Notes under the pieces: model-generated
Seen by the model: the letters and a program-made list of their open reading frames with translations, nothing else
What the model was told of the DNA's origin: nothing
Database searches by the model: none
Part shown: piece by piece, positions 9,041 through 30,003 of the stretch
How the letters are laid out: every line of letters begins with the position of its first letter
How positions within the stretch are numbered: the first letter of the stretch is position 1
Source of the DNA: an uncultured Spirochaetales bacterium
Lineage (GTDB): Bacteria; Spirochaetota; Spirochaetia; Sphaerochaetales; Sphaerochaetaceae
DNA length: 47,185 bases
Assembly (NCBI GenBank): GCA_945947045.1
Contig: CAMEXG010000001.1
Coordinates: 1 to 47,185 of the forward strand
Direction of reading: 5' to 3'
Made by a program: the position numbers and the translations under genes

Positions 9041-9826
9041 ATGTTGATGTTCGTCTTTTCTATCGTAGTGTTGGTAGCAACTATCGTAGGGTCAATAAGT
9101 GGTATCGGAGGAGGAGTCCTAATCAAGCCTGTAATGGACGCTTCTTTCCCTCTTACTACTTCCCAAATCAGCTTTTTAAGTGGAACCACAGTCCTCACAA
9201 TGACCATCGTATCGCTCCTAAGAAGCAGAAAGGACTTGAAGCTTGATTTAAGGACCCTCATGTTAGCCATAGGCGGAGCTGTGGGGGGAATAATAGGAAA
9301 ACAAATCTTCGATGTAGTAAAAAAAGCAGCCGGCAACGACGCCTTTGTAGGTCTTGTACAGAATATCATCATGGTGCTATTAACAGGTGCCGTCTTTGTT
9401 TATACTCTGAAAAAAGCAACTATCAAGACGAAGAACCTCAAGAACCCTGTATTCTCTTTGATCGTAGGTTTATTCTTAGGAGTATTATCTTCATTCTTAG
9501 GAATCGGAGGAGGACCAATCAACCTTATGGTTCTCTCTTATATTTTCTCCCTTGATACAAAGAATTCAGCTCTCGCTTCCTTGTTTATCATATTCTTCTC
9601 ACAGCTCTTCTCTCTTGTTTCTTCTGTTGTGACAAATACAATCCCGACCTTTGACTGGCCTATGTTATTGATGATGATGGCATGTGCAGTAATAGGAAGC
9701 ACACTGGGAAGAATGTTCTCCAAAAAGATGGACAACAAGGCTGTAGATAAACTCTTTATGGCTCTTATGGCTGTAATCATCGCCCTCTCAATCTATAACT
9801 GCATCAAATTTGGAATAAGTCTTTGA
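9041..9826 (+). CDS. TauE/SafE (TSUP) family anion exporter/permease
   Basis: 261 aa, about 8 TM segments, duplicated G-rich motifs (SGIGGGVLIKP / LGIGGGPINL) typical of TSUP. Confidence 0.8.
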   Translation: MLMFVFSIVVLVATIVGSISGIGGGVLIKPVMDASFPLTTSQISFLSGTTVLTMTIVSLLRSRKDLKLDLRTLMLAIGGAVGGIIGKQIFDVVKKAAGNDAFVGLVQNIIMVLLTGAVFVYTLKKATIKTKNLKNPVFSLIVGLFLGVLSSFLGIGGGPINLMVLSYIFSLDTKNSALASLFIIFFSQLFSLVSSVVTNTIPTFDWPMLLMMMACAVIGSTLGRMFSKKMDNKAVDKLFMALMAVIIALSIYNCIKFGISL

Positions 9827-9910: not shown

Positions 9911-11032
9911 ATGGAAAATGCTTTTCAACTTCTTCATAGAAAAGAGAAAGATATGCTCCTTGATATTGTAAAGGAGAAGACGATATCACGAACAGAGCTA
10001 CAGAAAAAATCAGATTTAAAAGTTGCAAACTTCTACAATACAGTGGACGACCTTTTGAAATATAAGCTTATAAAAAAAGATGAAGTTATTGTTACAGGAA
10101 AAAAAGGAAGGCCATCAGAGATCCTTTCTTTGAATAAAAGATACTGCTATACTTTGTATATCCTCATTACTGGAGAAGGATATTATCTGGGAGTATGTGA
10201 TCTTGAAGGTAACATCAATGAAGGAGAGCGCAATAAGATTACAGATAATCTTCACCTTCCTCTATTTCTCAGTAATGTTGAAAAATACTTCAAAGAGAAA
10301 TCCTGCTCTTATAACATCCAATATGTTACACTTGTCACAGGAGTAAATCCCAAAAGAAAGGAAATTGCATTCTCTTCATTCTTCGGAGTAGATATTGAAG
10401 ATGAACTCTACAAAATTACATCTCTTCCCGTTTATTCAGACTCCATAGCCCGTGCTGCGGCTCTTGGCATTTATAATGAACGATATAGTCAAGAGCATGT
10501 ATCTCTCGCCTTCTTCAACCTCGGGACAGGTATTGGAGTCGGTCTAGTACATGCTATGATTCCTGAAGAGTTTTGGTATAAAAACAGAATAGCTATTGGA
10601 CACTGGGAAATGGATCCTAACGGAAGAAAATGCAGATGTGGCAAAAATGGTTGCTTGATAACTACTCTTGGCTGCAACGACATTATAAGAAATGCTTTGG
10701 AATACAAAGAAGAAGGCACACATTCTTCTCTCAATGAAGGAGCAGATGTCCTTGATCTAATAAATGCTGCAAATAGTGGAGACCCTTGTGCAACGAAAGC
10801 TCTTGATGAGGCTGCAGTCTCCTTTGTAAAAGCAATGAGAATCATTTATAGCATTGTAAATTTTGATATAGCATCAATTGGTGGTCAACTTTGTCATGGC
10901 AACACTTACTTCTATACAAAAGTAAAAGAAGAGATAAAAGGTCTCCCTTTTACATTAGATATAGAAGAAAACTATATTCAAAAGACCAGTAAAGGTATCT
11001 GTTATAGACTTCTATTAGAGCTTCTATCTTAA
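9911..11032 (+). CDS. ROK-family transcriptional regulator (wHTH plus ROK sugar-binding domain)
   Basis: 373 aa. N-terminal winged-helix-like segment and the ROK zinc motif CRCGKNGCL. No SD before the ATG, so the start is uncertain. Confidence 0.75.
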   Translation: MENAFQLLHRKEKDMLLDIVKEKTISRTELQKKSDLKVANFYNTVDDLLKYKLIKKDEVIVTGKKGRPSEILSLNKRYCYTLYILITGEGYYLGVCDLEGNINEGERNKITDNLHLPLFLSNVEKYFKEKSCSYNIQYVTLVTGVNPKRKEIAFSSFFGVDIEDELYKITSLPVYSDSIARAAALGIYNERYSQEHVSLAFFNLGTGIGVGLVHAMIPEEFWYKNRIAIGHWEMDPNGRKCRCGKNGCLITTLGCNDIIRNALEYKEEGTHSSLNEGADVLDLINAANSGDPCATKALDEAAVSFVKAMRIIYSIVNFDIASIGGQLCHGNTYFYTKVKEEIKGLPFTLDIEENYIQKTSKGICYRLLLELLS

Positions 11033-11040
11033 GAAAAACT

Positions 11041-11796
11041 ATGAAACACGTAATCGAAAACCAATTTTTAATTGCTACCATTGATTGCAAAGGAGCACAG
11101 CTTCTCTCTTTAAAATCTAAAGAAAATGGCAAAGAATATATATGGACAGGAGATGAAAGCATTTGGAAGTGGCACGCTCCTGTTTTATTTCCACAGTGCG
11201 GAAACTTTCCAAACGGTTATTTCTACAATGGGAATAATTACAAGCTTCCTATGCATGGTTTCCTTAGAGATGTAGAACATACTTATCAGAGAGATGGAGT
11301 CTATATTTTTACTTCAGAGAAAAGGGAAGATTATCCTTTCTCTTTTAAAGCCCAAACAACCTTTACACTTAATAAACATACACTTACTCATTCAATTACT
11401 ATCACAAATCCATCTTCCTATCCTATGCCCATGTCTCTTGGTTTTCATACAGGGTACTTAATTAAGTCTCCGCTTCTTATATTTGAGAATACTGAAGAAG
11501 AAGTAGGTGGAAGGAAGTTTAAGTGCAATGACGCGACTCTCTCAGAAACTAAGTTATATACAAAGATCAAGTCCAGACGAATCAATGTGGAAGGAGAAGA
11601 GGGAAAAAGAATGGCTGTCTCTTTCTCCGACTGCACTACCCTTGTTATTTGGAGTCCAAAGGGTGAAAGTCGAAATCTAGTATGCATCGAACCCCGCATA
11701 GATACTATTCCTTCTGGTACAAAAGAACCCTTTGCTATTATGTTAAAAGGAAATGAGAGTATTACTCTCTCTGAAAGCATTGAAATAATAGAATAA
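11041..11796 (+). CDS. aldose 1-epimerase (mutarotase) family protein, short LacX/YihR-like form
   Basis: 251 aa. PVLFPQCG... and LPMHGFLRD motifs of the galactose-mutarotase-like fold. Starts 8 nt after the ROK gene. Confidence 0.65.
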   Translation: MKHVIENQFLIATIDCKGAQLLSLKSKENGKEYIWTGDESIWKWHAPVLFPQCGNFPNGYFYNGNNYKLPMHGFLRDVEHTYQRDGVYIFTSEKREDYPFSFKAQTTFTLNKHTLTHSITITNPSSYPMPMSLGFHTGYLIKSPLLIFENTEEEVGGRKFKCNDATLSETKLYTKIKSRRINVEGEEGKRMAVSFSDCTTLVIWSPKGESRNLVCIEPRIDTIPSGTKEPFAIMLKGNESITLSESIEIIE

Positions 11797-11819: not shown

Positions 11820-11839
11820 GGGCTGCAGTCACGCAGCCC
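11820..11839. terminator. hairpin between the convergent mutarotase gene and the LarA-like gene
   Basis: GGGCTGC AGTCAC GCAGCCC (7-bp GC-rich stem). Flanking U-tracts are weak on both strands. Confidence 0.55.
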
Positions 11840-11859: not shown

Positions 11860-13353
11860 TCAGTGCATCAAAGTAAAGTCACCTGCGTGGCCGTTTGTAC
11901 CATCATAGACTTCGCCTTTCATTGAGAGGTGTACTGCACCTGTCTTGAATGTCAGAGGAAGAGCAAGGATGTTAGGGTTCTCAGGAAGATACTTTCTCAT
12001 TGCATCTGAGAGTGCTTCCTCGAATGTAGCCCTGGTCTTTAGACCCATGCCTCTTGCGATTCCCGGTTCCCTTGCGCCAACGATGTAGATGGCGGAAGTA
12101 TTCATCTCAGCAATATGGCCGCAGCTCATCATAGAGAAGCCGTGGAACGGATGGAATGCGTTGCAGAAGCGATACTTTCTGATGTACTCCTCGTTTGTTG
12201 CGAAGTACTCGCCGTATCTGTTCATATCAGGGAGAACGTTGTTGTAGTCATGCTGGAACATATTGTAGAGCTCCCTGAGGTATGGCCATCTCTCGTCATG
12301 GAAGTAGCCGTCGCAGATTGTGGATACGATGAATACACATCGGTCCGACATAACTCTCTTGTGTCTGATTACCTGAGCAGACAAGGCCTGCATCATCTGG
12401 ATCGGGTTTGTCCCCATTCCGTTTCCATAGTGGAAGTTTGTAGGCATGCCGAATACAATGCAGTCATACTTCTTCTCTGCAAACGGTACATATGTACGCT
12501 TGTCGGCGCATGCCCAAGAGACTGGCTGCATCTCCTTAGCGTATCCTGAGAAGATCGCTATCTGGCGTGAGGACGAGTCAAGGACTGCGTCTACGCAGAA
12601 GAACTTTTTCCCCATCTTCTCTTCCATGTACATACCCTGCTCGTCGAACTTGTTTCTCATTGTGCTTGTCCCGGAAACAGGTGTGAAGTCCTTTCTATGC
12701 ATTACGGATGGAACATGGTGGGCTGCGATGCTCCTCCAGTGTGTGATGCCGCAGGAACAGTGCTTATATCCACCGCTGTATCCGCCGTATGGGTTACCAG
12801 ATGTGTGACCGATCATGATGGCTACATCGGAGTCATAGACATACTTGTTCATGATCACGTGGTCGCCGCCCTCTGTATATCCAAGGTCCACCAGGTGCTC
12901 ATAGTCTTCACTGTCGTGGCTTGTGAGGAGACCGTATGGATAGAACTCGTTGAAGAGCTCCTCTCCAAGAATCTGCTTCATCTCCTTCTCCGTTGCACGT
13001 GGATGGAGTCCATTTGAGATGATTAGGAGAATGTCCTTCTTCTCTACTCCTACACTATATAGTTCGTCCAGGATACAGCGCATCGCAACCTTTCTGTGGC
13101 TCGTCTTCTGGCATCCACCCTTTACGATGTCAGGGATGATGATGGTGACCTTGCTTCCCTTATGGGCAAGCTCAGTGATAGTAGGCATTCCGATTGGATT
13201 CCTGATGGAGTCCATAGTAGCCTTATACAGGGAGTCCCAGTCCTGAGGAAGTGGTTCCGGATCCTTCACTGTCTCTCCTGGGATAAATACGTCTGTGTAA
13301 TCTGGGAGCTCGGCAGCCATTGTGCCTTCGCCATACTCAAAATTCAACTTCAT
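11860..13353 (-). CDS. LarA-like nickel-pincer-cofactor-dependent racemase/epimerase family protein (DUF2088)
   Basis: 497 aa. By-eye alignment to L. plantarum LarA matches NGLHPR (His108 region), GHTSGNPYGGYSGGYK (His174, and the SGGxK Lys184 cofactor tether) and IAAHH (His200 Ni ligand). The ATGA start overlaps the upstream stop, and AGGAG is 6 nt upstream of the ATG. Confidence 0.75.
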   Translation of the reverse strand: MKLNFEYGEGTMAAELPDYTDVFIPGETVKDPEPLPQDWDSLYKATMDSIRNPIGMPTITELAHKGSKVTIIIPDIVKGGCQKTSHRKVAMRCILDELYSVGVEKKDILLIISNGLHPRATEKEMKQILGEELFNEFYPYGLLTSHDSEDYEHLVDLGYTEGGDHVIMNKYVYDSDVAIMIGHTSGNPYGGYSGGYKHCSCGITHWRSIAAHHVPSVMHRKDFTPVSGTSTMRNKFDEQGMYMEEKMGKKFFCVDAVLDSSSRQIAIFSGYAKEMQPVSWACADKRTYVPFAEKKYDCIVFGMPTNFHYGNGMGTNPIQMMQALSAQVIRHKRVMSDRCVFIVSTICDGYFHDERWPYLRELYNMFQHDYNNVLPDMNRYGEYFATNEEYIRKYRFCNAFHPFHGFSMMSCGHIAEMNTSAIYIVGAREPGIARGMGLKTRATFEEALSDAMRKYLPENPNILALPLTFKTGAVHLSMKGEVYDGTNGHAGDFTLMH

Positions 13354-14186
13354 TTGTTTTCTCCTAGATATGTCTTGATGATTTCGATGTATTCGTCTGG
13401 ATAGAATCCGATTTCACCCTTAAAACGAGTAAGAGCAATTAGACCTCCATCAATTTCATCGATTGAAGCAAGCATTTCTGCATTGTCAGTCTTTAAACCG
13501 CCACCGTAAACTACAGCCAGACCGTCAGTCTCTTTCTTTACAAGCTTTGCAACCTTTGTGATGTAAGGCTTATCTGCAGGAGTCTTACCAGGGCCAATGG
13601 ACCAAACAGGTTCATATGCAATAGCTACTCTCTCTTTATCTGCACCCTCGAGTCCGATAGAGAGCTGTTCTTTTAGAACTTCATCCCAGTTATCCAGCTC
13701 TGTATCCTTTTCTCCGATACAATACAAAACTTTAAGACCAGCATTTTGTGCAGCAAGAATCTCTTTATTGAGAATTCTATTGACAGCCTTTGTATCGACG
13801 ACACCAGCTTCAGCCAGGATCGCAGCAAGCTTATTTCTCTCTTCGCAATGACCGATAAGGGCATATGAGCAGCCGAAAGAAACAGCAGCATTTCCTGTAA
13901 GGGAAGTAGTGAATGCACCAAATGGTCCACCTACCTTTGTGTCTCCCCAGAAAAGTCCCTGTGTTCCTACTTCAATCGGGCTGTCTTCTGTCTTGGCAGA
14001 GCAGGCAGGAATAAGGTGTGCTTCAGGGAAGAACATTGCAAACTCAGTATCTTTGAAAGCCTTAAGCTGCTCCTGTGTATTCTTGACGATGAATGAACCC
14101 CATTCTTTCGGATCAGATATGGAGTTTACTCCTCCCTTCTCTCTTGGAATATCAAATCTTTTAAGGTTTAAGTAAATGTGCTTCAT
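13350..14186 (-). CDS. triosephosphate isomerase family protein (divergent paralog type)
   Basis: 278 aa. The catalytic set is retained: NLK (Asn/Lys), LIGHCEE (His/Glu), AYEPVWSIGPGK (Glu). The signature motifs differ from housekeeping TpiA. Confidence 0.8.
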   Translation of the reverse strand: MKHIYLNLKRFDIPREKGGVNSISDPKEWGSFIVKNTQEQLKAFKDTEFAMFFPEAHLIPACSAKTEDSPIEVGTQGLFWGDTKVGGPFGAFTTSLTGNAAVSFGCSYALIGHCEERNKLAAILAEAGVVDTKAVNRILNKEILAAQNAGLKVLYCIGEKDTELDNWDEVLKEQLSIGLEGADKERVAIAYEPVWSIGPGKTPADKPYITKVAKLVKKETDGLAVVYGGGLKTDNAEMLASIDEIDGGLIALTRFKGEIGFYPDEYIEIIKTYLGENK

Positions 14187-14195
14187 ACACTCTCC

Positions 14196-15353
14196 TTATC
14201 TAAAGATTGCAAAATCTGGATGACTACCCATAAGTGGATCACAATAAGCGAAGAATTCATCGGAAATCTTATTTGTACCTTCAATCCACTGGAGAGGGAA
14301 CTTCTTTTCCACGTTTGCTACATCACATAGAGGCACAAGATCAAGAGAGAACTTGAAGCCGTCGGTTCTATCAGCGACAATAGATACCATGCTTCCTGTC
14401 TTTCCTGCGGCGGCAGCTTCAACAGCCTTCTTTCCGACTGCATATGCTTCTTCTCTGTCTACGTCTGACTGGTATGCGATTGAAGTTCTACCTACCAATC
14501 CAGGCTTCTCACTTCTGGACTTAAGACCAATTTTGTCCATAATCTGACGTGAGATGAACTCGCCTACGCCTCCTGCGACCTTGTGACCGAAGCCGTCTAC
14601 AATTCCGGTGTCTGCAAGAGGATTTCCATCCAAGCCACAGAGACCTTCACTTACTGTAACAAGGCATCCTCTTCCCTTGGCATATGCCTTCTCGATATCA
14701 GAAAGCATAACATTTACATCCACAAGTTTCTCAGGAAGGTATGTCAAGACTTCACAATTTGTAACCCTTGCGGCCAAAGCAGAAGCAGCTGTAACCCAAC
14801 CTGCGTTTCTTCCCATAAGTTCCAGAACTACTACATGGATAGGAAGACCGTTTGCATCAAGGGCAAGCTCAGATGCGTTGATAGCGGCATAACGAGCTGC
14901 GGATCCAAAGCCTGGACAGTTATCTGTAAAAGCAAGGTCGTTGTCCATAGTCTTTGGTATTCCGATCACCTGAAGATCCAAGCCTTCTTTTTCTGCAAGG
15001 ATAGAAATCTTATTACAAGTATCCATACTATCGTTGCCACCGTTGTAGAAGAAAACACCGATGTCATTCTTCTTCATACACTCGATTACAGCGGGATAAT
15101 CCTTATCACTGAGCTTTCTTCTGCAGCTGCCGATGGCAGTTGCAGGAGTATGAGAAAGCTTACCTACAGTAGAAGACGGAATATTTGTCAAATCCAAAAG
15201 GTCATTCTTTAAGATTCCTTCGGCACCGAACTTAGCACCTAAAATCTTATTAAAGCCCCCGTTGATTCTAGCTGTTTCGATGACACCCTGAAGAGATGTA
15301 TTGATTACAGCTGTGGGACCGCCACCATGGGCGACAAGTATATTCTTTCCCAT
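14196..15353 (-). CDS. phosphofructokinase (PfkA) family sugar-phosphate 1-kinase, with a PPi-type signature
   Basis: 385 aa. GGNDSMDT, IGIPKTMDNDL and LMGRNAG motifs. The Asp in GGxDS and the Lys in PKTxDND are the classical PPi-PFK markers. Confidence 0.85.
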   Translation of the reverse strand: MGKNILVAHGGGPTAVINTSLQGVIETARINGGFNKILGAKFGAEGILKNDLLDLTNIPSSTVGKLSHTPATAIGSCRRKLSDKDYPAVIECMKKNDIGVFFYNGGNDSMDTCNKISILAEKEGLDLQVIGIPKTMDNDLAFTDNCPGFGSAARYAAINASELALDANGLPIHVVVLELMGRNAGWVTAASALAARVTNCEVLTYLPEKLVDVNVMLSDIEKAYAKGRGCLVTVSEGLCGLDGNPLADTGIVDGFGHKVAGGVGEFISRQIMDKIGLKSRSEKPGLVGRTSIAYQSDVDREEAYAVGKKAVEAAAAGKTGSMVSIVADRTDGFKFSLDLVPLCDVANVEKKFPLQWIEGTNKISDEFFAYCDPLMGSHPDFAIFR

Positions 15354-16510
15354 TAGATACCTGCCTTCTTATATCTTTCAGCCATTTCATCAAGTGTTAC
15401 ACATTCGATGAGAGGAGCCTTACCATAGGAACCGAACTGAATGATGAGGGAGCCTACAGCTTCCTTGACACCAGCTTCCATTCTCTCGAAAAGTAATCTT
15501 GTATCGTCATCATTGATGTTTCCATACATGACTGCATCCATTACTGGTGGCAGGAACACTCTTGGGTCGAAAGCAGATGGGTTCTTTACCATAAGTTCAT
15601 AAACAGGTCCGATAGAAGGACTATTCTTCAATGACGGCTTGTCTCTGAAGAGTTCACGGAAGTTTCTTGTAACAGCAAGGCGGATATCTGTATCAACGTT
15701 GATCTTTCCGATTCCACACTTGGCAACTTCCTGAAGCTGCTCGATCTTGATTCCATAAGCGTTCTGAACGTCTCCGCCAAGAGCGTTAATTTCCTTTACG
15801 ATATACTGAGGAACAGTTGAAGAACCATGGCTGACGAGAACACCGTCGATTCCTTCATGTCTCATGCACTCTTTTGTTGCAATAGCGATCTCTTTTCTGA
15901 TGACTGTGTTTGCGCCCTTATTTGCACCATGCTTTGTACCATAAGAGATGGCAAGAGCATCAACCTTTGTCTTCTTGAAGAATTCGATTGCATCCATTGG
16001 GTTTGTGTAAGTGCTTGTAGCAGCAAAGACATGGTCCTCGACACCTGCGAGAACTCCAAGTTCACCTTCTACTGTTACACCTCTTTCGTGTGCATATTTT
16101 ACGACTTCTCTTGTAAGCTCGATGTTTTCCTTGAAAGGAAGAGAAGAACCATCGATCATGACAGATGTATATCCACCTTCAATGGCAGCCTTACAAGAAT
16201 CGAAGTTCTTACCATGGTCAAGGTGAAGAGCAACAGGAATCGGGGAATCGACAGCATACTTCTTGACTGCCTCTGCAATGTTTCTTGCTCCAACTTTCTT
16301 GTCTTCAAGAGTTGCGTTCTGGAAGTCTGTCCTTCCACCCATGAAGCCGTTTGCAAGGTCTGCACCCTGAAGAATGGCTGCACTTCTGAACATTTCGTGG
16401 ACTTCAATGACTGCCTTTGCCTGAGCAACTGCGTTAACGTTGAATGCACCCTGAGCATAGCAATATTTGTCTGTTGCATCGAGGATGGCTTTCATAGGTA
16501 CTAATGACAT
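15353..16510 (-). CDS. class II (metal-dependent) fructose/tagatose-bisphosphate aldolase family protein
   Basis: 385 aa. The HLDHG, EGELG, YGTKHG and SHGSS metal/catalytic motifs are all present. AAGGAG RBS at 16519-16524. Confidence 0.85.
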   Translation of the reverse strand: MSLVPMKAILDATDKYCYAQGAFNVNAVAQAKAVIEVHEMFRSAAILQGADLANGFMGGRTDFQNATLEDKKVGARNIAEAVKKYAVDSPIPVALHLDHGKNFDSCKAAIEGGYTSVMIDGSSLPFKENIELTREVVKYAHERGVTVEGELGVLAGVEDHVFAATSTYTNPMDAIEFFKKTKVDALAISYGTKHGANKGANTVIRKEIAIATKECMRHEGIDGVLVSHGSSTVPQYIVKEINALGGDVQNAYGIKIEQLQEVAKCGIGKINVDTDIRLAVTRNFRELFRDKPSLKNSPSIGPVYELMVKNPSAFDPRVFLPPVMDAVMYGNINDDDTRLLFERMEAGVKEAVGSLIIQFGSYGKAPLIECVTLDEMAERYKKAGI

Positions 16511-16574
16511 CTTCTTATCTCCTTATTTAGATGTTTTTATGTAGGTTAAACCTCTAGTTTTTAGTTTATTTAAA

Positions 16575-16590
16575 TTATTTAATTAAATAA
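16575..16590. promoter_or_regulatory. perfect 16-bp palindrome TTATTTAATTAAATAA, a candidate operator overlapping the -10 of the aldolase operon
   Basis: Read directly; it is self-complementary and contains the half-site TAATTAAA shared with the dyads at 23624 and 31500. Confidence 0.45.
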
Positions 16591-16615
16591 TATCACCCTT
16601 TTTCCCGTTACGCAA
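16587..16615 (-). promoter_or_regulatory. sigma70-like promoter of the aldolase-PFK-TIM-LarA operon
   Basis: Minus strand: TTGCGT (16615-16610), 17 nt, TGa-TATTAT (extended -10; hexamer 16592-16587). Confidence 0.5.
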
Positions 16616-16635: not shown

Positions 16636-16662
16636 AAAAAGCACGGGGATACAAGATCCCCG
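16636..16662 (-). terminator. rho-independent terminator ending the ABC/sulfatase operon
   Basis: Stem CGGGGAT / ATCCCCG with a 5-nt loop, followed on the minus strand by UGCUUUUUCC. Starts 5 nt after the sulfatase stop. Confidence 0.8.
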
Positions 16663-16666
16663 ATAA

Positions 16667-18130
16667 TCACCAATTAATCTTCTTAGGTTGCTTCTTACTT
16701 GACACCATCTCTTCCGGATAGTGACGAGCACAGTCAGGAGCATGCCATCGTTCATCAGAATCAAAAGAACAACGCATTGTAATAGAGAGGTTTTGTTCCT
16801 CTTTCTTTGCATTTTCAACTATTTTTTCAAAGCTTTCACACTTTTCATCCAATAAAGATACCGCTTCTTTTGCAAACTCAGAATAAGAAGAAATTATATT
16901 TTCCGTTTCATGAGGATCTTTCTCTATATCGAAAACCTCTTCTTTATCTGAAGTGCAATATCTGACATATTTAAGGCTACCCTTCTTTACCATCTGGGCA
17001 TATGGAACACTATGTGTATTTCTATCCATAGCACCACCAAGTTCAGAGATCACCATTCTCTTTTTATCATCATACTCCTCTGTAAGTTGCTTTTTAAGGC
17101 TGACTCCATCTGAGCCATATGCAATGGGTGCGTCTACTAGATCACAGAGAGTAGGTCCTAGATCGATAAGGCTTGTAGCTCCTTCGATCTTTACGTTCTT
17201 TCTTATTCCGTCACCGGCAATTATAAGAGGCGTATGTACGGACTCTTCGAAAAATGTCTGCTTACCATACAGACCTCTTGATCCTATTTGATCTCCATGA
17301 TCTGAAGCATAAATAAAGATTCCTTCATGTCCTGTACGTCTCAAATACTCTTGGAAAGCGTCATATACCATACCGACTTCCATGTCTGTGAACTCACACA
17401 TAGCGTAGTATGCCGCTCTGACAGCTTTCACTACTTCAGGGTCTTTATCATTGAAGACACCTTCATAGAATGATGGAAGAGGATAATCCACATCGTCTTC
17501 TCCGCTGACTCTTTCGTAATAATAGTCGTAAAGTTCCTTTGGAGCTACATAAGGATGATGGGGTGCATATGTTCCGACACATAGAAACTGTGGTTTTTCA
17601 TAGCTATCCTTCAGATAATCCAAAGCATGCTCTACAACATATCTATCGAACTCAAGAGTAGGAGAATTGCCTGCCCCAATTATTGAAATACAGTGAGCCC
17701 CGCCTGTAGGAGTATTGAGATGAACTCCCCTCTCTTTTTTAAAGGCTTCGGTCGGTCTGTTTGTATATATCGGAGTTATATCTCCTGCAATACGCTTTGA
17801 AAAACCATGTCTCTGGTCAGGGCCTACAAAGTGCATTCTTCCACACAGCACCGTCTCATAGCCGATGCTGTTCAGGCTATGGGCGAAAGTAGCACGTGAA
17901 GAATCAAGAACACTGAAGTTTCCCATTACTCCGCACTTAGAGGCTAACTGTCCTGACATCAGACTCATTCTGGCAGGGACGCAAAGCGGATAAGGAGTGT
18001 AGTTATTCATAAATGCTACACCCTCCGAAGCGATTCTATCTAAGTTTGGAGTTCTCAAGATTCCATTTCCAACATAGTGTTGCTGGAGAAAGGCATGTTG
18101 GTCAGAAAAAAACAAACAAATATCTTTCAT
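16667..18130 (-). CDS. Cys-type (formylglycine) sulfatase, no signal peptide
   Basis: 487 aa. Sulfatase signature PLCVPARMSLMSG (C-x-P-x-R). The N-terminus MKDICLFFSDQH has no hydrophobic leader. Confidence 0.85.
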   Translation of the reverse strand: MKDICLFFSDQHAFLQQHYVGNGILRTPNLDRIASEGVAFMNNYTPYPLCVPARMSLMSGQLASKCGVMGNFSVLDSSRATFAHSLNSIGYETVLCGRMHFVGPDQRHGFSKRIAGDITPIYTNRPTEAFKKERGVHLNTPTGGAHCISIIGAGNSPTLEFDRYVVEHALDYLKDSYEKPQFLCVGTYAPHHPYVAPKELYDYYYERVSGEDDVDYPLPSFYEGVFNDKDPEVVKAVRAAYYAMCEFTDMEVGMVYDAFQEYLRRTGHEGIFIYASDHGDQIGSRGLYGKQTFFEESVHTPLIIAGDGIRKNVKIEGATSLIDLGPTLCDLVDAPIAYGSDGVSLKKQLTEEYDDKKRMVISELGGAMDRNTHSVPYAQMVKKGSLKYVRYCTSDKEEVFDIEKDPHETENIISSYSEFAKEAVSLLDEKCESFEKIVENAKKEEQNLSITMRCSFDSDERWHAPDCARHYPEEMVSSKKQPKKINW

Positions 18131-18134
18131 TTCT

Positions 18135-19088
18135 TTAACCCAACTCCTCGACTCTACAACATCTGACGAAATGTCCAGGACTTACTTCTTGCTGCTCCTG
18201 TGGCTCAAGACATTTTTCTGTAGCAAACTTACATCTAGCGGCAAATCTACATCCAGGCTTAGGATTAATTGGAGAAGTAAGCTCTCCCCTCAATATCTCC
18301 CTCTTATTCGGATGATCGATATCAATACTTGGAATTGCAGACAACAATGCTTTTGTATATGGATGAAGTGGCATTTTGAATAGTTCCTTTGAAGGGCATT
18401 TCTCCACAACCTGACCAAGATACATTACACAGATTTCATCAGAAATATGTTTTACAACGGACATATCATGAGTTACGAACATATATGTAAGATCTCTATC
18501 CATCTGCAGTTTTTTCAAGAGGTTTAAAACCTGTGCCTGAATAGAAACGTCGAGAGCGGAGACAGGCTCGTCACAAACAACGAACTTTGGATCCAATGCA
18601 AGAGCTCTTGCTATTCCGACTCTCTGTCTCCTTCCACCGTCCAGTTCGTGAGGATATGCATACTTTAGTCTCTCATCAATTCCAACAAGGTCCATGAGCA
18701 TATCTGTTTTTTCTTCGATTTCAGACTTAGAGTATCTTCCCGATACTTTGAGAGGTTCTTTTACAGTATCCCTGATGGATTTCTTCGGGTCGATTGATGA
18801 GTATGGATCCTGGAATATAATCTGCATCTGCTCTCTGACTCTCTTTAGATCCTTGCCCTTCACATCAGATACATCTTCGCCTTCAAGAAAGATCTTTCCG
18901 TCAGTTTTATCTAAAAGATGAATGATTGTTCTTCCAAGAGTAGATTTACCACATCCAGATTCTCCGACTATTCCAACAGTATGGCCCTTTTCAATATCCA
19001 TGGTAACATCATCCACAGCGTGGAGAAGTCCTCTTGCAGTTGAGAAGTATTTTTTAAGTCCCTCGACTCTCACCATTGATTCGGACAT
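18135..19088 (-). CDS. ABC transporter ATP-binding protein, OppF/DppF type
   Basis: Walker A GESGCGKST, signature LDGGRRQRV, and a C-terminal oligopeptide-type extension with Cys residues. Confidence 0.9.
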   Translation of the reverse strand: MSESMVRVEGLKKYFSTARGLLHAVDDVTMDIEKGHTVGIVGESGCGKSTLGRTIIHLLDKTDGKIFLEGEDVSDVKGKDLKRVREQMQIIFQDPYSSIDPKKSIRDTVKEPLKVSGRYSKSEIEEKTDMLMDLVGIDERLKYAYPHELDGGRRQRVGIARALALDPKFVVCDEPVSALDVSIQAQVLNLLKKLQMDRDLTYMFVTHDMSVVKHISDEICVMYLGQVVEKCPSKELFKMPLHPYTKALLSAIPSIDIDHPNKREILRGELTSPINPKPGCRFAARCKFATEKCLEPQEQQEVSPGHFVRCCRVEELG

Positions 19089-20090
19089 TTATTTTCCCTC
19101 CTTTGAAAGAACAGACTTCATATTAATACAATGTGAAATATGACCGTCTTCTGTTGTCAACGCGGGAATTTCACCCTTCAAGCAGGCCTCTGTCGCATAT
19201 TTGCATCTTGGAGCAAAGGCACATCCCACAATCTCTTTTGTCGGATCTGGTGGGAGACCTTCAATCGGATGAAGCCAGATATCATCATCCGCCATGTCTG
19301 GAATTGCACCAAAGAGACCTAAAGTATATGGATGAGAAGGATGATGGAATATCTGTTCTTTTGTTCCATATTCTACGATTCTTCCAGCATAGATAATTGC
19401 AACCTCGTCACATACAGTTGCAACGACACCAAGGTCATGGGTGATCAAAAGCATTGCAGTATTAAACTTCTTCTGCAACTCCCCTACAAGCTCCAATACC
19501 TGAGCCTGGATTGTAACATCCAAAGCTGTTGTCGGCTCATCAGCCAAAAGCACCTGAGGATTACAAGCAAGAGCTATGGCTATAACGATTCTCTGTTTCA
19601 TTCCACCGGAGAACTGATGAGGGTATTCATAATAACGGTCTTCTGTGATTCCCACCATTTTAAGCATTTCTTTAGCTCTCTCTTCACACTGCTCTTTTGA
19701 CAAATCACTATGAAGTTTTACTGCTTCAGATATCTGCTCACCTACTCTCTGTACTGGGTTAAGTGCAGTCATAGGATCCTGAAAAATCATAGATATTTCA
19801 TTACCTCTAATCTTTCTCATATCATGCTCTTTAAGAGAAAGAAGATCTTTTCCATCAAGTTTTATTTCTCCCTCCACTATTCTTGCACCTACATCAGGCA
19901 AGATTCTAAGAATAGACTTAGCTATTGTAGTCTTTCCTGCTCCTGTTTCACCAACCAATCCCAGTGTCTTACCTTTATACATCTTTAGGTCTACGCCGTT
20001 TACGGCATGAACCACTGTCTTACCGGAGAAGTATTCGACTTTTAGATTCTTCACCGAAAGAAACTCTTTGTTTTCAGCTGTGTTATCCAT
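19089..20090 (-). CDS. ABC transporter ATP-binding protein, OppD/DppD type
   Basis: Walker A GETGAGKTT, FSGGMKQRI, Walker B LLADEPTTALD. The start abuts the next gene's stop. Confidence 0.9.
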   Translation of the reverse strand: MDNTAENKEFLSVKNLKVEYFSGKTVVHAVNGVDLKMYKGKTLGLVGETGAGKTTIAKSILRILPDVGARIVEGEIKLDGKDLLSLKEHDMRKIRGNEISMIFQDPMTALNPVQRVGEQISEAVKLHSDLSKEQCEERAKEMLKMVGITEDRYYEYPHQFSGGMKQRIVIAIALACNPQVLLADEPTTALDVTIQAQVLELVGELQKKFNTAMLLITHDLGVVATVCDEVAIIYAGRIVEYGTKEQIFHHPSHPYTLGLFGAIPDMADDDIWLHPIEGLPPDPTKEIVGCAFAPRCKYATEACLKGEIPALTTEDGHISHCINMKSVLSKEGK

Positions 20091-20102
20091 TATATCTTCT
20101 CC

Positions 20103-20960
20103 TTATTTCTTAAGTTTTGGATCGAGAGCATCTCTAATTCCATCGCCAAGCATATTGACAGCAAGAACTGTCACGGCAATTGCAAGACCTGGGAAAATAA
20201 CCATATGAGGGCTCTTTCTGATAAAAGCTCTTGCTCCACTGAGCATTGCACCCCAGTCTGGTGTAGGAGGCTGCACGCCAAGTCCGATGAAGGATAGGGA
20301 AGCTGCCTGAATGATAGTATGGGCGACACCCATTGTCATACCGACAATATTTGCACTTATGGAGTTTGGAACCAAATGGGTGAAGATTATCCTTGCAGGA
20401 GAACAGTTAATTGAATATGCAGCTTCAATATATTCAGCCTTTCTCTGCTTAAGCATGTTTGCCCTCAACATTCTTGCCTGACCAGGTATTGCTCCTACAC
20501 TTAATGCGAGAATGGTATTGAAATATCCAGAACCAAGAACGGCAGACATTACGATTGTGAGAAGCATACCAGGAAGAGATTGGATGACATCCAAAGCTCT
20601 CATGATGATGTTATCTGTCCAACCACCTGCAAAACCTGCAACAGCGCCGATGACTATACCGATGACAGAACTGATTGCCGTAGCGATTATTCCCATGGAA
20701 AGAGAATATCTTGTGCCTACCACAACACGAGAGAATATATCCCTACCGATTTCATCTGTTCCAAACCAATGTTTTGCGGAAGGAACCTGTCTAAGAGCAG
20801 TTGGATCTATTTCCTGATATCCATAGGGAGCAATCTGTGTGGCGAAGATTGCAATCAACACCTCAATAAGAAGAATAACCAATCCAATCATTGCCATCTT
20901 GTTTTTACTAAGCTGATAAACAAATCTTGAAAATTCAGACTGACCTTTATGTTTCTTCAT
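20103..20960 (-). CDS. ABC transporter permease, OppC/DppC type
   Basis: 285 aa, 6 TM segments, EAA-like loop (EYIEAAYSINCSPARIIF). Confidence 0.9.
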   Translation of the reverse strand: MKKHKGQSEFSRFVYQLSKNKMAMIGLVILLIEVLIAIFATQIAPYGYQEIDPTALRQVPSAKHWFGTDEIGRDIFSRVVVGTRYSLSMGIIATAISSVIGIVIGAVAGFAGGWTDNIIMRALDVIQSLPGMLLTIVMSAVLGSGYFNTILALSVGAIPGQARMLRANMLKQRKAEYIEAAYSINCSPARIIFTHLVPNSISANIVGMTMGVAHTIIQAASLSFIGLGVQPPTPDWGAMLSGARAFIRKSPHMVIFPGLAIAVTVLAVNMLGDGIRDALDPKLKK

Positions 20961-21931
20961 TAGTTAGCCCCCTTCTTGACTGCAACTTTTTTCTTGCCCT
21001 TATTCTGATACTGAGCCTTTATTCTTGGGTCTACAGCCGCATAAAGCATATCTACGAGAAGCATGCTGAACGAGAAGACGATAGCCAAGAAGATTGTTCC
21101 TGTCTGAACAACAGGATAGTCTCTGTTGTTAACAGCTGTGATGATAAGTGTACCCATGCCAGGGATAGAGAAGATTGTCTCGATGATCATCGCACCGCCA
21201 AGCATCTTTCCAAACTGTGTTCCCATCATTGTAATAATAGGAATCAAAGCATTCTTAAGAGCATGCTTGATAATTACTTTATTCTCTGGTACACCCTTCG
21301 CTCTGGCTGTTGTAATATAATCAGATCTGATGACATCTAGCATACTGGATCTGGACTGACGAGCTGCAGATGCAATATGGGTAGCGGAAGCTGAAATTGC
21401 AGGAAGAATGTAGTATTGTATACCACCGATACCAAGGGCAGGAAGCCATTTGAGTTTTACAGCAAAAAGAATAACCAACAACAAAGCAAGCCAGAAGTTT
21501 GGCATTGATACTCCGACGAGAGCCAAAACCATACACAAAGAGTCCTGCCATCTATTTTGATGTACTGCAGCAATGACGCCAAGAGGCACACCGATTGCAA
21601 AAGAAAGAATCAATGTTATACCTGAAAGCATCATAGTTCTTGGAAGTCTTTCAACAATAGAGTCTGCAATAGGAATTCCGGTTCTCCATGCCACTCCAAG
21701 ATTAAAATGAATAAATGTATCGCTTAAAAATCTTGCCAATCTGACAAAATATGGATCATTTAGGCCCAATTCTTCTCGTTTTGCTTCCAAAGCCTCTTCC
21801 GTCGCTTCTGAACCCAAAATAATCTCAGCAGGATCACCAGGACAATATGTCATTAAAGTAAAAACAACAATGGCGACAGCTAGAATAATCGGAATCATCC
21901 AAAGTAAACGCTTTAGAAAATATCTAAGCAT
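20960..21931 (-). CDS. ABC transporter permease, OppB/DppB type
   Basis: MLRYFLKRLL N-terminus typical of OppB. I place the start at Met11 of the track ORF because AGGAGG lies 7 nt upstream. Confidence 0.9.
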   Translation of the reverse strand: MLRYFLKRLLWMIPIILAVAIVVFTLMTYCPGDPAEIILGSEATEEALEAKREELGLNDPYFVRLARFLSDTFIHFNLGVAWRTGIPIADSIVERLPRTMMLSGITLILSFAIGVPLGVIAAVHQNRWQDSLCMVLALVGVSMPNFWLALLLVILFAVKLKWLPALGIGGIQYYILPAISASATHIASAARQSRSSMLDVIRSDYITTARAKGVPENKVIIKHALKNALIPIITMMGTQFGKMLGGAMIIETIFSIPGMGTLIITAVNNRDYPVVQTGTIFLAIVFSFSMLLVDMLYAAVDPRIKAQYQNKGKKKVAVKKGAN

Positions 21932-21998
21932 TAGTACTCCTCCTTTTTTGTTTCCTTGCATAGATTGCCCTGCATATAGCAGGACAATCTAGTTTTTA

Positions 21999-23582
21999 TC
22001 AGTTGTATATGCAGGCTGTAGGAACTACCATGTTAATGTTGTCATTTACAACTTCCTTGATTCCAACCTTATTGTTCCATACTGCAAGGTTATTAAGCTG
22101 GTACATTCCATATCCGTAAGCTTCTTCCTTGATGTAGTTATGAACCTTGTTAATATTTTCAGGTGTGAATCCCTTCACTGTTGAAGCCTCTGCAATCATG
22201 TCTGCAAGTACATAGTCATGTCTACTTGTAGCGTCACCAGTCTTGTAGGATCTGCAGTCATATCTTGTATTCCAGTGGTTTGCAAGTGTGATGCCACCGA
22301 CCTGGTTAATGAACATATCGTACTGTGTTCCATCAAGTCTAATAGCTGTAACAAGGGCAACTTGTCTCAAATCAAGCTTGATGTTGATGCCAACGGCAGC
22401 ACAGCAGTTCTGAATGATTTCTGCAACAGTCTTTGTTGTTGAGGAACCAAGAAGAACGAGTTCTTCTCCCTTGTAGTTAGACTTAGCGAGACATTCCTTA
22501 GCCTTTTCTACGTTATAAGGATAGTATTCCTCGTCGAGCCACTCTTTTTGGTAACCCATAGCATAAGTAGCTGCAGAGTCATGCATTACTGTTCCATATC
22601 CTTCGAGGGCGGCGTCAATCATCAACTGGTTATTGATGGCATAACAGATTGCCTGTCTAAGATATTTGTCTTCTGCAACAGGTTTTCCTTCTGCCCCTGA
22701 GAAGAAGATCTGCATACCGTTTCTTGCATCTGCTCTCTGGAGTGTATAATCACTGTCACCATCAAACTGTACTGCAGTTGAAGCTGGGAAGTTGAGGACA
22801 AAATCTACTACACCTGTCTCAAGTGCGATGCCAAGCTGGGCAGCTTCTGGAATAATATGGACTTTAACATTGTCCACAGTCGCCCTCAGCTGCTCAGGAA
22901 GGAGATTATAATCCTGCCAGTAGTCATCTCTCTTTGTATATTCCATAGAAGAGCCGGAAACAAAACCTGTTACCTTGTAAACGCTAGTTGTTACACAGCT
23001 GTTCACATAATCATCACCAGCCTTCTCATATTCAGCCTTTGAACAGACAAGAGTATCTGTCATGAATGTTTCGAATACACCTACAAGAGTATTGTTGAAC
23101 TTAACTCTTACAGAATAGTCGCCTGTAGCTTCGATGGATTCAACATACTTGTAGTTTGGCTTAAGAGCTTTTTCTTTTGATGTCTCGACAACCCAAACAA
23201 TATCTTCGGATGTAATCTTGTTACCTTTGCTATCTGTAATGTAGTCCCAGATAGTAATATCGTATGTTACACCGTTATCTTCTGTCTTCCATTCCTTTGC
23301 AATCCATGGAACAAGGGTATTTGAACCATCAAGATAGCCGAGAGACTCATAAGTAATAGTAGAAATTACAGGAAGATTGTTTCCGATGTTGGATCTGAAT
23401 GGAGAGAGTGTATCCCAACCAGTGTTGATACCAACATTGATTTCAATCTTTTTCTTCTCTGCAGTCTTTGTGCTTGTTTCAGTAGCAGTTCCTGATGTAG
23501 AACTGGTCTTCGATTCGCTCTTTCCACATGAAACAAAAAGCATGAGAACAGCCAAAAGAAGCACGAAAATAATCTTTTTCAT
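21999..23582 (-). CDS. family 5 (peptide/nickel/oligosaccharide) ABC substrate-binding lipoprotein
   Basis: Lipobox LMLFVSC-G followed by a Ser/Thr-rich linker. 527 aa, SBP_bac_5-like. AGGAG RBS. Confidence 0.85.
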   Translation of the reverse strand: MKKIIFVLLLAVLMLFVSCGKSESKTSSTSGTATETSTKTAEKKKIEINVGINTGWDTLSPFRSNIGNNLPVISTITYESLGYLDGSNTLVPWIAKEWKTEDNGVTYDITIWDYITDSKGNKITSEDIVWVVETSKEKALKPNYKYVESIEATGDYSVRVKFNNTLVGVFETFMTDTLVCSKAEYEKAGDDYVNSCVTTSVYKVTGFVSGSSMEYTKRDDYWQDYNLLPEQLRATVDNVKVHIIPEAAQLGIALETGVVDFVLNFPASTAVQFDGDSDYTLQRADARNGMQIFFSGAEGKPVAEDKYLRQAICYAINNQLMIDAALEGYGTVMHDSAATYAMGYQKEWLDEEYYPYNVEKAKECLAKSNYKGEELVLLGSSTTKTVAEIIQNCCAAVGINIKLDLRQVALVTAIRLDGTQYDMFINQVGGITLANHWNTRYDCRSYKTGDATSRHDYVLADMIAEASTVKGFTPENINKVHNYIKEEAYGYGMYQLNNLAVWNNKVGIKEVVNDNINMVVPTACIYN

Positions 23583-25381: not shown

Positions 25382-25383
25382 TT

Positions 25384-27801: not shown

Positions 27802-27843
27802 ACATATCTCCTTTTTACTATCCTCTGTTTTTTTTCTGTTTGT

Positions 27844-29993: not shown

Positions 29994-30003
29994 AAGACCA
30001 ACC

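Follow-up and report, generated by a model that had tools for sequence, protein, structure and literature searches.

Positions 1 to 47,185 of contig CAMEXG010000001.1, from an uncultured Spirochaetales bacterium of the Sphaerochaetaceae (GCA_945947045.1), make up the 47,185-nt stretch analyzed here (the window), in which four minus-strand genes encode a class II ketose-bisphosphate aldolase, a kinase of the phosphofructokinase (PFK) family, a divergent TIM-fold isomerase (TIM-like protein) and a LarA-like nickel-pincer-nucleotide (NPN) enzyme (Table 1). The list of open reading frames (ORFs) and Pfam recover all four at the places and in the families given by an earlier note on this DNA, and the translational coupling proposed there is evident in a 1-nt overlap of the aldolase stop with the PFK start (TAATG, 15351-15355), a 9-nt gap between the PFK and TIM-like genes (14187-14195) and a 4-nt overlap of the TIM-like stop with the LarA start (ATGA, 13350-13353). 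LarA, which the note had described as fused to the other genes, is coupled to them translationally instead. Sequence comparison of these enzymes and their conserved partners indicates that they likely act on a sugar whose C6 anion is something other than phosphate.

The note had also bracketed the operon with hairpins and given it its own promoter and palindromic operator, of which part stands. The terminator-like hairpin with its T-run is present downstream of the preceding sulfatase gene, and no such hairpin occurs in a related Sphaerochaetaceae locus (L026), where the sulfatase-aldolase gap is ~38 nt. The hairpin 3′ of LarA is also present, but its T-run is weak (four T only) and the terminator scan made no call there. 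Upstream of the aldolase we found a perfect 18-bp AT-only palindrome, ATTATTTAATTAAATAAT, at 16574-16591 in AT-rich surroundings, for which a match with at most three mismatches arose in 11 of 100 shuffles. It has no second copy within the window and is missing at the corresponding site in L026, and we therefore rejected it as a repeated operator. The palindrome overlaps a plausible extended −10 element (TGaTATTAT, 16587-16595), for which the sole −35 candidate at proper spacing is TTGCGT (17 nt, 3 of 6 consensus bases), but the consensus scan called no promoter at 16574-16615. A riboswitch or other RNA element was rejected, as the window gave zero Rfam or tRNA matches.

By sequence, the LarA-like protein belongs to the single-His LarA subfamily. 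Over its full length (residues 1-485) it is ~80% identical to LarA_Bw of Blautia wexlerae (PDB 9q3j, E = 2.9e-247) and LarA_Sp of Streptococcus plurextorum (9q2u, E = 1.2e-237; also 9q3k), both described by Gatreddi et al. (Protein Sci 2025, PMC12611868). Aligned to 9q2u, it keeps the first catalytic His and has Asn at the second (His174), and so lacks the pair of catalytic histidines that characterizes 2-hydroxyacid racemases and epimerases, which carry out a two-base inversion at C2. The equivalents of LarA_Sp Asp73, Lys76, His115, Asn185, Lys195, His211, His306, Tyr307 and His401 are all conserved, including the NPN-linking Lys, the Ni-binding His and the Asp and Lys for ribose and phosphate, and the motifs PDxVKGG, NGLH, GHTxGNPYGGYSGGYKH, HHVP, FHYG and HPFHGF are identical to those of 9q2u; the roles of these residues are taken from PMC12611868. 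That paper describes the subfamily as octamers with bound nickel-pincer cofactor and a substrate that is not known, reports that LarA_Sp lacks lactate racemase activity, and shows an unidentified ligand of ~316 Da extending to the LarA_Sp active-site entrance, which its authors modeled as a phosphorylated sugar, proposing a role in ‘carbohydrate metabolism’. The functions of single-His LarA proteins were still termed unknown in June 2026 (PMC13524815). Glycolysis-like neighbors had also been published, with PGI, pyrophosphate (PPi)-dependent PFK and TIM in one organism and FBPase, TIM, fructose-bisphosphate aldolase (FBA), glucosamine-6-phosphate isomerase and mutarotase in the other, so that the core observation of the earlier note rediscovers a context already in print (PMC12611868). 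What is new here is the status of the genes as an accessory module, their conserved partners and the shared replacements at phosphate sites. Our literature search found no link of LarA/DUF2088 to sulfoquinovose, mucin or sulfatases. None of larB, larC or larE is encoded in the window, and LarC (PF01969) adjoins LarA in 5 related loci. A nicotinate phosphoribosyltransferase gene (3897-5342, plus strand) lies 6.5 kb from LarA; its product yields nicotinate mononucleotide, en route to the nicotinate adenine dinucleotide precursor of the nickel-pincer cofactor, and is probably a housekeeping enzyme whose proximity is coincidental.

At E ≤ 1e-10 we found 2898 homologs of the LarA-like protein; identity in the top 120 is 70-99% and nearly always at least 75%. 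A genome scan with LarA, taking one genome per species, gave more than 565 matching stretches; beside LarA homologs of other genomes the gene set recurs, in hundreds of gut bacteria. We kept 80 of these loci, drawn from Spirochaetales, Oscillospiraceae and Lachnospiraceae together with one Desulfovibrionaceae and one Bacteroides metagenome-assembled genome (MAG), with LarA 76-94% identical; pre-annotated contigs were also read for related loci. Partners were then counted by tblastn of window and neighbor proteins in 89 loci (the 80 plus 9 contig look-ups), giving TIM-like in 65, a NitT/TauT-type ATP-binding cassette (ABC) importer in ~50, NagB-like and aldolase in 42 each, NagA in 36, PFK in 34, the anion exporter TauE, usually right after LarA, in 32, DUF4838 in 16, a two-component system in ~15, PGI-like in 8 and a sulfatase in 1. 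Where full 10-kb flanks were available (n = 28), 24 loci had the ABC importer, 17 had TauE and 19 had NagA or NagB-like. The conserved partners are thus an SsuA/TauA-type importer, TauE, NagA, the NagB-like protein, the two-component system and often a DUF4838 glycosidase. In the window the two-component system, importer, NagA and NagB-like genes lie ~20 kb away at 33.4-41.8 kb, and TauE lies at 9.0-9.8 kb, and the operon is accordingly not self-contained, as the note had called it. On this comparative evidence, the module is an accessory unit that travels with LarA across phyla at 60-90% identity.

The TIM-like protein retains the catalytic Asn, Lys, His and Glu, within the motifs NLKRF, GHCEER and YEPVWSIG that are invariant in 61 homologs, and its loops 6 and 7 are nearly canonical, with the lid loop 6 intact and YGGG in loop 7 for canonical YGGS. 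Loop 8, however, reads ALTRF, with a conserved Arg, in place of GGASL, a change kept in 56-61 of the 61 homologs. Against the NCBIfam triosephosphate isomerase (TPI) equivalogs it reaches 50-88 bits where the cut-offs are 130-883 (88.2 vs 883, 79 vs 255, 64.1 vs 130.6), and so has the catalytic residues of a canonical TPI without its score or its phosphate-gripper loops. Its clade is small and distinct (92 representatives in 1.84 billion proteins at E ≤ 1e-30), and the protein is always paired with LarA, directly upstream of it in 57 of the 72 loci having enough upstream DNA. It also tracks the enzyme that cleaves the C6 sugar: the two are both present in 51 loci and both absent from 16, and in the same loci the TIM-like protein never occurs together with a YihU-like dehydrogenase found in some of them. 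The TIM-like gene persists in clusters whose aldolase and PFK are replaced by an FSA-like enzyme, from which no dihydroxyacetone phosphate (DHAP) arises, and we therefore consider that the protein most likely acts on the non-DHAP C3 aldehyde. A role as an extra isomerase of DHAP and glyceraldehyde 3-phosphate was considered unlikely for the same reason. The intact lid loop suggests a true isomerase.

The aldolase, longer than usual for class IIb, scores barely above the TIGR00167 ketose-bisphosphate subfamily cut-off (217.9 vs 215.6) and below every FBA equivalog (best 249 vs 511 and 236.6 vs 343); its nearest solved structures are the Giardia and T. aquaticus FBAs, and its homologs in 42 of the 89 loci are 62-93% identical. 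The PFK scores 415 bits against NF010675 (cut-off 273), is nearest in the PDB to the PPi-PFKs 3k2q and 3hno, and carries the motif PKTMDND with a Lys preceding TxDND, which together place it in the PPi-dependent PRK14072 group with PPi as its predicted donor. His173, aligned with a Lys of 3k2q and 3hno, is invariant (His in 19 of 19 homologs), and we take this position to correspond to Arg162 of E. coli PfkA. The PGI-like gene reported in the earlier note is indeed present, as judged by PF00342, though under its equivalog cut-off, and lies inside the LarA cluster in 8 loci.

The note had also allowed that these might simply be the housekeeping glycolytic genes of the organism. The Pfam families are the glycolytic ones, and PPi-PFKs serve glycolysis in spirochaetes. 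The TIM-like, PGI-like and NagB-like proteins, however, fall under every NCBIfam equivalog cut-off, the tiny TIM-like clade stands apart from canonical TPIs, the set moves between phyla with LarA as a unit, and its location is a catabolic island with its own regulators. We regard a housekeeping role as highly improbable.

Upstream of the sugar-cleaving step, the most widespread partners are an N-acetylglucosamine (GlcNAc)-6-phosphate deacetylase, NagA, and a NagB-like deaminase. NagA scores above its equivalog cut-off (Table 1) and conserves the metal-binding motifs HTHG, HLEGPF and GHS. The NagB-like protein is not a NagB by either score or phosphate binders. It keeps Asp72, His143 and Glu148, has Arg172→Ile, Asp141→Asn and Lys208→Arg, and has its PTGGTP loop shortened to PVG--P; we take Asp72, His143 and Glu148 of E. 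coli NagB to be catalytic, and Thr41-Thr44, Arg172 and Lys208 to bind phosphate. The H-R-E-P-G motif of NagA has His216 where Arg would stand, and this position is His in 37 of 37 module homologs. We assume that the replaced Arg is the Arg225 that was mutated in M. marinum NagA. The R225A change abolishes activity on GlcNAc-6-phosphate (PMC6016474). Alterations in the phosphate-binding loops of at least two members, claimed in the earlier note, are thus confirmed and extend, conserved in homologs, to NagA, the NagB-like protein, PFK and the TIM-like protein. Its claim that no hexokinase, phosphotransferase system (PTS) or other sugar kinase is encoded also stands within the window, where the three ROK proteins are of regulator type: two, of 408 aa, have an N-terminal extension before the ROK domain, one with called HTH_24 and MarR domains, and the third matches Mlc/NagC from residue 21-23, with no evident kinase DxGxT motif.

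These genes would, on their annotations, fit a conventional route for phosphorylated amino sugars or rare sugars, of the GlcNAc or N-acetylgalactosamine (GalNAc)-tagatose type, in which an unlinked kinase makes the 6-phosphate, NagA, a NagB/AgaI-like enzyme, PFK and a KbaY-like aldolase lead to triose phosphates, LarA is a sugar-phosphate epimerase or isomerase and the TIM-like protein is an extra TPI. The gene set follows Aga/Nag and tagatose-bisphosphate logic, NagA is above its equivalog and PFK above its subfamily cut-off, loops 6 and 7 of the TIM-like protein are near canonical, and the ligand modeled in LarA_Sp is a phosphorylated sugar (PMC12611868). What makes this route improbable is that the cluster comes without a sugar kinase or PTS, that the importer is of the nitrate/sulfonate/taurine type and not CUT1 or CUT2, and that the loss of the NagA Arg and of NagB-like Arg172 is conserved. 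An anion exporter would moreover be purposeless in it, the TIM-like protein is retained where the FSA-like enzyme yields no DHAP, and two of the cluster types described below (B and C) have no hexose enzymes.

Five independent lines of evidence indicate instead a sulfo group at C6 of an amino sugar. The substrate-binding protein (SBP) of the importer has SsuA and TauA as its nearest solved relatives, and the importer does not belong to the sugar-type ABC systems; a TauE-family anion exporter accompanies the module; NagA and the NagB-like protein require an anionic C6 substituent, yet there is no C6 kinase or PTS; the 6-phosphate binders of NagA, the NagB-like protein and PFK are replaced and loop 8 of the TIM-like protein is remodeled, all in conserved fashion; and a 617-aa DUF4838 protein stands between SBP and NagB-like genes (order SBP-DUF4838-NagB-like-NagA) in 13 of the 16 DUF4838-bearing loci. 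DUF4838 includes GH185, which has the key residues Q174, H227, D309, Y436 and R633 and whose founder is a cytoplasmic exo-6-sulfo-GlcNAcase (PMC10570127). The neighbor in the related loci matches the domain at 2.7e-15, has no N-terminal signal sequence apparent by eye, and returned only close unnamed relatives in a homology search. For these reasons we tentatively propose, at a little short of an even chance, an EMP (Embden-Meyerhof-Parnas)-like cleavage of a 6-O-sulfated amino sugar in which the sulfated C3 fragment would be processed by the TIM-like and LarA-like proteins and sulfate would leave the cell through TauE. The substrate is probably GlcNAc-6-sulfate from mucin or keratan-type glycans, with its sulfate retained. 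Of the earlier hypothesis, a hexose whose 6-substituent is not phosphate, the sulfur oxyanion thus gains support, also from the gene order of L026, whereas glucose-6-sulfate as its carrier loses it, since the conserved upstream enzymes NagA and NagB-like point to an amino sugar. NagA enzymes are known to accept such a substrate: NagA is inactive on GlcNAc and turns over GlcNAc-6-sulfate at similar kcat with a 7-fold higher Km, kcat being unchanged for the M. marinum enzyme and 33 vs 91 s-1 for that of M. smegmatis (PMC6016474). Fructose-6-sulfate and glyceraldehyde-3-sulfate went unmentioned in the literature we found on sulfated sugars.

Sulfatases, which the note had linked to the operon, are confined to spirochaetes as neighbors of the module, occurring in 1 of the 80 loci plus the window. 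On that count, and with the Opp-sulfatase unit also existing without LarA, we rejected them as general partners. In that one locus, L026, the four genes stand in a single operon that runs on directly from the sulfatase gene, and the order is Opp, sulfatase, aldolase, PFK, TIM-like, LarA, TauE and a radical-SAM/SPASM protein resembling the anaerobic sulfatase-maturating enzyme (anSME), and in a further locus (L094) the SsuA-type ABC importer and two-component system abut the sulfatase, esterase, PGI and GH3 block; both arrangements lend further support to a sulfated substrate. All three sulfatases of the window (16667-18130, 23753-25405 and 30004-31476) are of the Cys type (CxPxR) and have no signal peptides, and are therefore expected to be cytoplasmic and maturase-dependent. 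The window itself has no radical-SAM anSME gene; the anSME-like gene of L026 comes right after TauE.

In the pathway we propose, the SsuA/TauA-type importer (35.7-38.3 kb), perhaps with Opp, would take up the intact sulfated sugar or a small glycoside, after which NagA would remove the acetyl group and the NagB-like enzyme would deaminate and isomerize the product to fructose-6-sulfate, a pool into which the PGI-like enzyme could feed glucose-6-sulfate. PPi-type PFK would then phosphorylate C1, and the aldolase would release DHAP, bound for glycolysis, and glyceraldehyde-3-sulfate. The TIM-like protein would convert the latter to dihydroxyacetone sulfate through an enediolate, and the single-His LarA would carry out a redox-neutral hydride transfer on the C3 unit, the chemistry of both steps being putative. 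Our preferred guess for LarA is that sulfate is lost from the C3 ketone or enediolate and that a 1,2-hydride shift then takes methylglyoxal hydrate to D-lactate, since for this a single acid/base His suffices and the family's pyruvate-to-lactate half-reaction is reused; Desguin et al. have suggested, in general terms, that such homologs shift hydride to an adjacent atom (PMC7583248). An alternative would be aldehyde dismutation as reported for NphT. TauE would export the sulfate. The four genes would thus be the cleavage-and-C3 half of a horizontally spread pathway that treats a C6 sulfo group as a 6-phosphate, and the steps that lead to the C3 fragment here are taken over elsewhere by a transaldolase/FSA-like enzyme, by a ketohexokinase together with short class II aldolases, or by C3 dehydrogenases, with LarA, importer and exporter constant. 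A further speculation, which we ourselves hold to be unlikely, is that the TIM-like and LarA proteins together desulfurize a C3 sulfate ester or sulfonate independently of sulfatases, the TIM-like protein making the ketone or enediolate of glyceraldehyde-3-sulfate and LarA coupling release of the sulfur oxyanion to the hydride shift to D-lactate; this would be the first non-racemase reaction of a LarA and would complete a hitherto unrecognized ‘sulfate-ester glycolysis’ of mucin GlcNAc-6-sulfate, widespread in gut Clostridia and spirochaetes.

Clusters in which other enzymes surround the same LarA bear on what it acts upon. A gene for an FSA/transaldolase-like enzyme replaces aldolase and PFK in 7 loci, mostly of Lachnospiraceae, and another front end comprises a short-chain dehydrogenase/reductase, a zinc alcohol dehydrogenase, two short class II aldolases, a mutarotase and a ketohexokinase or PFK. 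Type B loci (L085-L087 and L090-L093), a compact and common alternative, consist of a LacI regulator, a 675-aa alkaline phosphatase-superfamily (PF01663) hydrolase, a YihU-like beta-hydroxyacid dehydrogenase and LarA, along with an NMT1-type ABC importer whose permeases and ATPases are doubled and with one or two TauE genes; they have no hexose enzymes and no TIM. Type C loci pair a GlpA-like flavoprotein trio with LarA and likewise have no hexose enzyme. Two of these GlpA-like-type clusters (L088, 14000-21400; L089, 13600-20700) lead into a phage-type integrase gene, HTH_17 genes and small ORFs; this context and the high identity of LarA across phyla suggest horizontal movement of the module. 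LarA presumably acts on what all cluster variants share, and the type B cluster may be the best clue to its true substrate. Its dehydrogenase, which occurs in type B loci only, has YihU, a sulfolactaldehyde reductase, as best NCBIfam match at 167.6 bits, below the cut-off, and reaches 163.1 bits with tartronate-semialdehyde reductase.

The second of these scores raises the case of a carboxylate at C6. From N-acetyl-hexosaminuronic acids the aldolase would give DHAP and tartronate semialdehyde, the latter to be interconverted with hydroxypyruvate and glycerate by the TIM-like and LarA proteins. The idea accords with the fact that characterized LarA enzymes all act on 2-hydroxy acids (PMC7583248, PMC11770544), and the two dehydrogenase scores are near each other. 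It leaves the SBP type, TauE, DUF4838 and the sulfatase and anSME-like context unexplained, the transporters and enzymes of uronate routes are normally different ones, and we think it very unlikely.

A sulfonate at C6 would make of the module a new sulfoglycolysis variant, for sulfoquinovose or an amino-sulfosugar, with the TIM-like and LarA-like proteins acting on sulfolactaldehyde, TauE exporting sulfite or a C3 sulfonate, and types B and C serving as routes for 2,3-dihydroxypropane-1-sulfonate (DHPS). The SBP is nearest to sulfonate binders, TauE exporters are typical of sulfonate clusters, the type B dehydrogenase matches YihU best, mutarotase-like genes are present, and one locus is from the Desulfovibrionaceae, members of which commonly respire sulfite. 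The combination of kinase and class II aldolase, or a transaldolase-like enzyme, also mirrors sulfo-EMP2 and the sulfo-transaldolase route, sulfo-TAL (PMC12890257). Several observations nonetheless speak for an ester. Neither the Pfam-annotated window ORFs of at least 150 aa (three without family match) nor the gene tables of related loci include a sulfoquinovosidase, whether GH31 or NAD-dependent; the commonest partners, NagA and NagB-like, have no role with sulfoquinovose; and to our knowledge no natural N-acetyl-6-sulfonated hexosamine exists. DUF4838 and the sulfatase and anSME-like context indicate sulfate esters, the literature search found no link between the family and sulfoquinovose, and sulfite is a potent LarA inhibitor that forms a cofactor adduct (PMC12611868). 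We therefore consider a sulfonate doubtful, if worth serious attention; the sulfate ester is tentatively favored over it.

Several further points count against the sulfate-ester pathway. The SBP, TauE and the altered residues do not separate sulfate from sulfonate, and sulfatases accompany the module in spirochaetes only. DUF4838 also covers the GH163 endo-GlcNAcases, which makes the DUF4838 neighbor a candidate GH185 only, and known sulfofructose enzymes are more distant from the aldolase and PFK than are bona fide FBA and PPi-PFK. Types B and C imply a C3 substrate such as DHPS, which the dehydrogenase-type clusters would fit better, and we know of no sulfate-ester equivalent of DHPS in the gut. 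The TIM-like protein as a sulfate-eliminating enzyme resembling methylglyoxal synthase was downgraded, given its intact lid loop 6. Finally, the ligand of LarA_Sp (PMC12611868) exceeds C3 size, a warning that LarA may in reality act on a larger compound.

The context described here narrows the LarA substrate to a non-DHAP C3 fragment of a 6-sulfo sugar, for a subfamily that had structures without an assigned reaction. GlcNAc-6-sulfate is released from mucin by sulfoglycosidases, and desulfation by sulfatases is the only route for its use known to us. If the proposed pathway is true, a sulfate-retaining EMP-like route would explain GlcNAc-6-sulfate use by sulfatase-poor Oscillospiraceae and Lachnospiraceae and would be an additional source of free sulfate for gut sulfate reducers. 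As to pathway evolution, a phosphate-recognizing set (NagA, NagB, PFK and TIM) appears to have been jointly retuned to another anion.

Other genes of the window can be noted beside these. The ROK and aldose-1-epimerase-like genes that converge with LarA are found in the same arrangement on four other metagenome contigs, and mutarotase-like genes lie beside LarA in further loci. Between NagA and the ABC permease, 38413-39906 (minus strand) encodes a 497-aa PHP/DUF3604-like metallohydrolase whose CehA/McbA domain is below cut-off and which has no homolog in any of the 80 related loci; in Oscillospiraceae and Lachnospiraceae a DUF4838 glycosidase instead adjoins NagB-like and NagA. The same-strand region directly upstream of the NagB-like gene, 41902-44134 (minus), encodes YqeB/XdhC-like and YqeC proteins, which mature selenium-dependent molybdenum hydroxylases. 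A 164-aa ORF with no family match and, by eye, a hydrophobic N-terminus (31625-32119, minus) lies between a ROK regulator and a sulfatase, and an unannotated 164-aa gene occupies the equivalent place in L094 (12876-13370) and in another locus (L095), as matched by position and length. At 5424-6335 (minus), a 303-aa ORF without Pfam or NCBIfam match overlaps the proB start. For the SBP, the best NCBIfam match is the SsuA family.

Table 1. Features of the window referred to in the text, in order of position.
Feature	Position	Strand	Basis or remark
TauE/SafE-family anion exporter	9041-9826	+	PF01925, 8.7e-34
ROK-type regulator	9911-11032	+	convergent with LarA
Short aldose-1-epimerase-like protein	11041-11796	+	convergent with LarA
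Hairpin GGGCTGC-N6-GCAGCCC	11820-11839	-	3′ of LarA stop codon
LarA-like NPN enzyme, single-His (His→Asn) subfamily	11860-13353	-	PF09861 Lar_N, 3.9e-35; PDB 9q3j, 9q2u
TIM-like divergent TIM-fold isomerase	13350-14186	-	PF00121 TIM, 4.2e-33
PFK-family kinase, predicted PPi-dependent PRK14072 type	14196-15353	-	Pfam PFK, 9.8e-49; NF010675
Class II ketose-bisphosphate aldolase	15353-16510	-	first operon gene; 385 aa; PF01116 F_bP_aldolase, 5.4e-71
Putative promoter (TTGCGT, 17 nt, TGaTATTAT) and overlapping palindrome	16574-16615	-	read from sequence
Terminator-like hairpin and T-run	16644-16662	-	downstream of upstream sulfatase gene
Cys-type sulfatase, predicted cytoplasmic	16667-18130	-	family searches
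Opp-type ABC importer	18135-23582	-	family searches
Sulfatase, GH3, PGI-like, esterase, sulfatase block	23753-31476	-	same block in L094, L095
PGI-like	27844-29109	-	PF00342; NF010697, 396 bits vs cut-off 443
Two-component system	33450-35602	-	homologs adjoin LarA elsewhere
SsuA/TauA-type ABC importer	SBP 35724-36725; ATPase 36766-37557; permease 37533-38324	-	best NCBIfam for SBP, SsuA family
NagA deacetylase	39903-41027	-	TIGR00221, 304.9 vs cut-off 225.65
NagB-like deaminase	41027-41842	-	105.8 vs equivalog cut-off 236.9

Compared with known systems, the LarA-like enzyme shows no protein-level difference from LarA_Bw and LarA_Sp, sharing with them the Asn at the second His position, the Lys, His and Asp that bind NPN and the new active-site His, His, Tyr and His; the importer, TauE, altered NagA and NagB-like proteins, DUF4838 and the sulfatase and anSME-like context are not mentioned in the accessible part of the published account (PMC12611868). 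The TIM-like protein has the TIM barrel, the four catalytic residues and the lid loop 6 of TpiA, and differs from it in score, in loop 8 and in its pairing with LarA. The DUF4838 neighbor of the 16 related loci is similar in size to the GH185 enzyme Sp_0475 of Streptococcus pneumoniae and by eye has no evident signal sequence, in line with the description of the Sp_0475 cluster; the window itself does not encode a DUF4838 protein. With sulfo-EMP (YihS/V/T/U) and sulfo-EMP2 (SqvD/SqiK/SqiA) the module shares the logic of a C6 sulfo group in place of phosphate, a C1 kinase, an aldolase (class II in sulfo-EMP2) that yields DHAP and a C3 sulfo-aldehyde, and export of the sulfur product (PMC12890257). 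It differs in having a PFK-family kinase, NagA and NagB-like enzymes upstream, an aldolase nearer to FBA than to other PDB class II aldolases, and a context that indicates a sulfate ester and not a sulfonate, and the window-type cluster has the TIM-like protein and the nickel-pincer enzyme where an NAD-dependent sulfolactaldehyde reductase or dehydrogenase would be expected; neither a sulfoquinovosidase nor a sulfolactaldehyde oxidoreductase, as in sulfo-EMP, sulfo-EMP2 or sulfo-TAL, is among the Pfam-annotated window ORFs of at least 150 aa. With GlcNAc and GalNAc catabolism (NagA-NagB; AgaA/AgaI/AgaS-PfkA-KbaY) it has in common the deacetylase, deaminase/isomerase, C1 kinase and class II aldolase, in the same order, whereas it uses a sulfonate-type ABC importer in place of a PTS or a permease with kinase, has replaced phosphate binders in NagA and NagB, and adds the TIM-like protein, the LarA-like protein and TauE. 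The pathway thus resembles both sulfo-EMP/sulfo-EMP2 and the Nag/Aga routes and is a member of neither.

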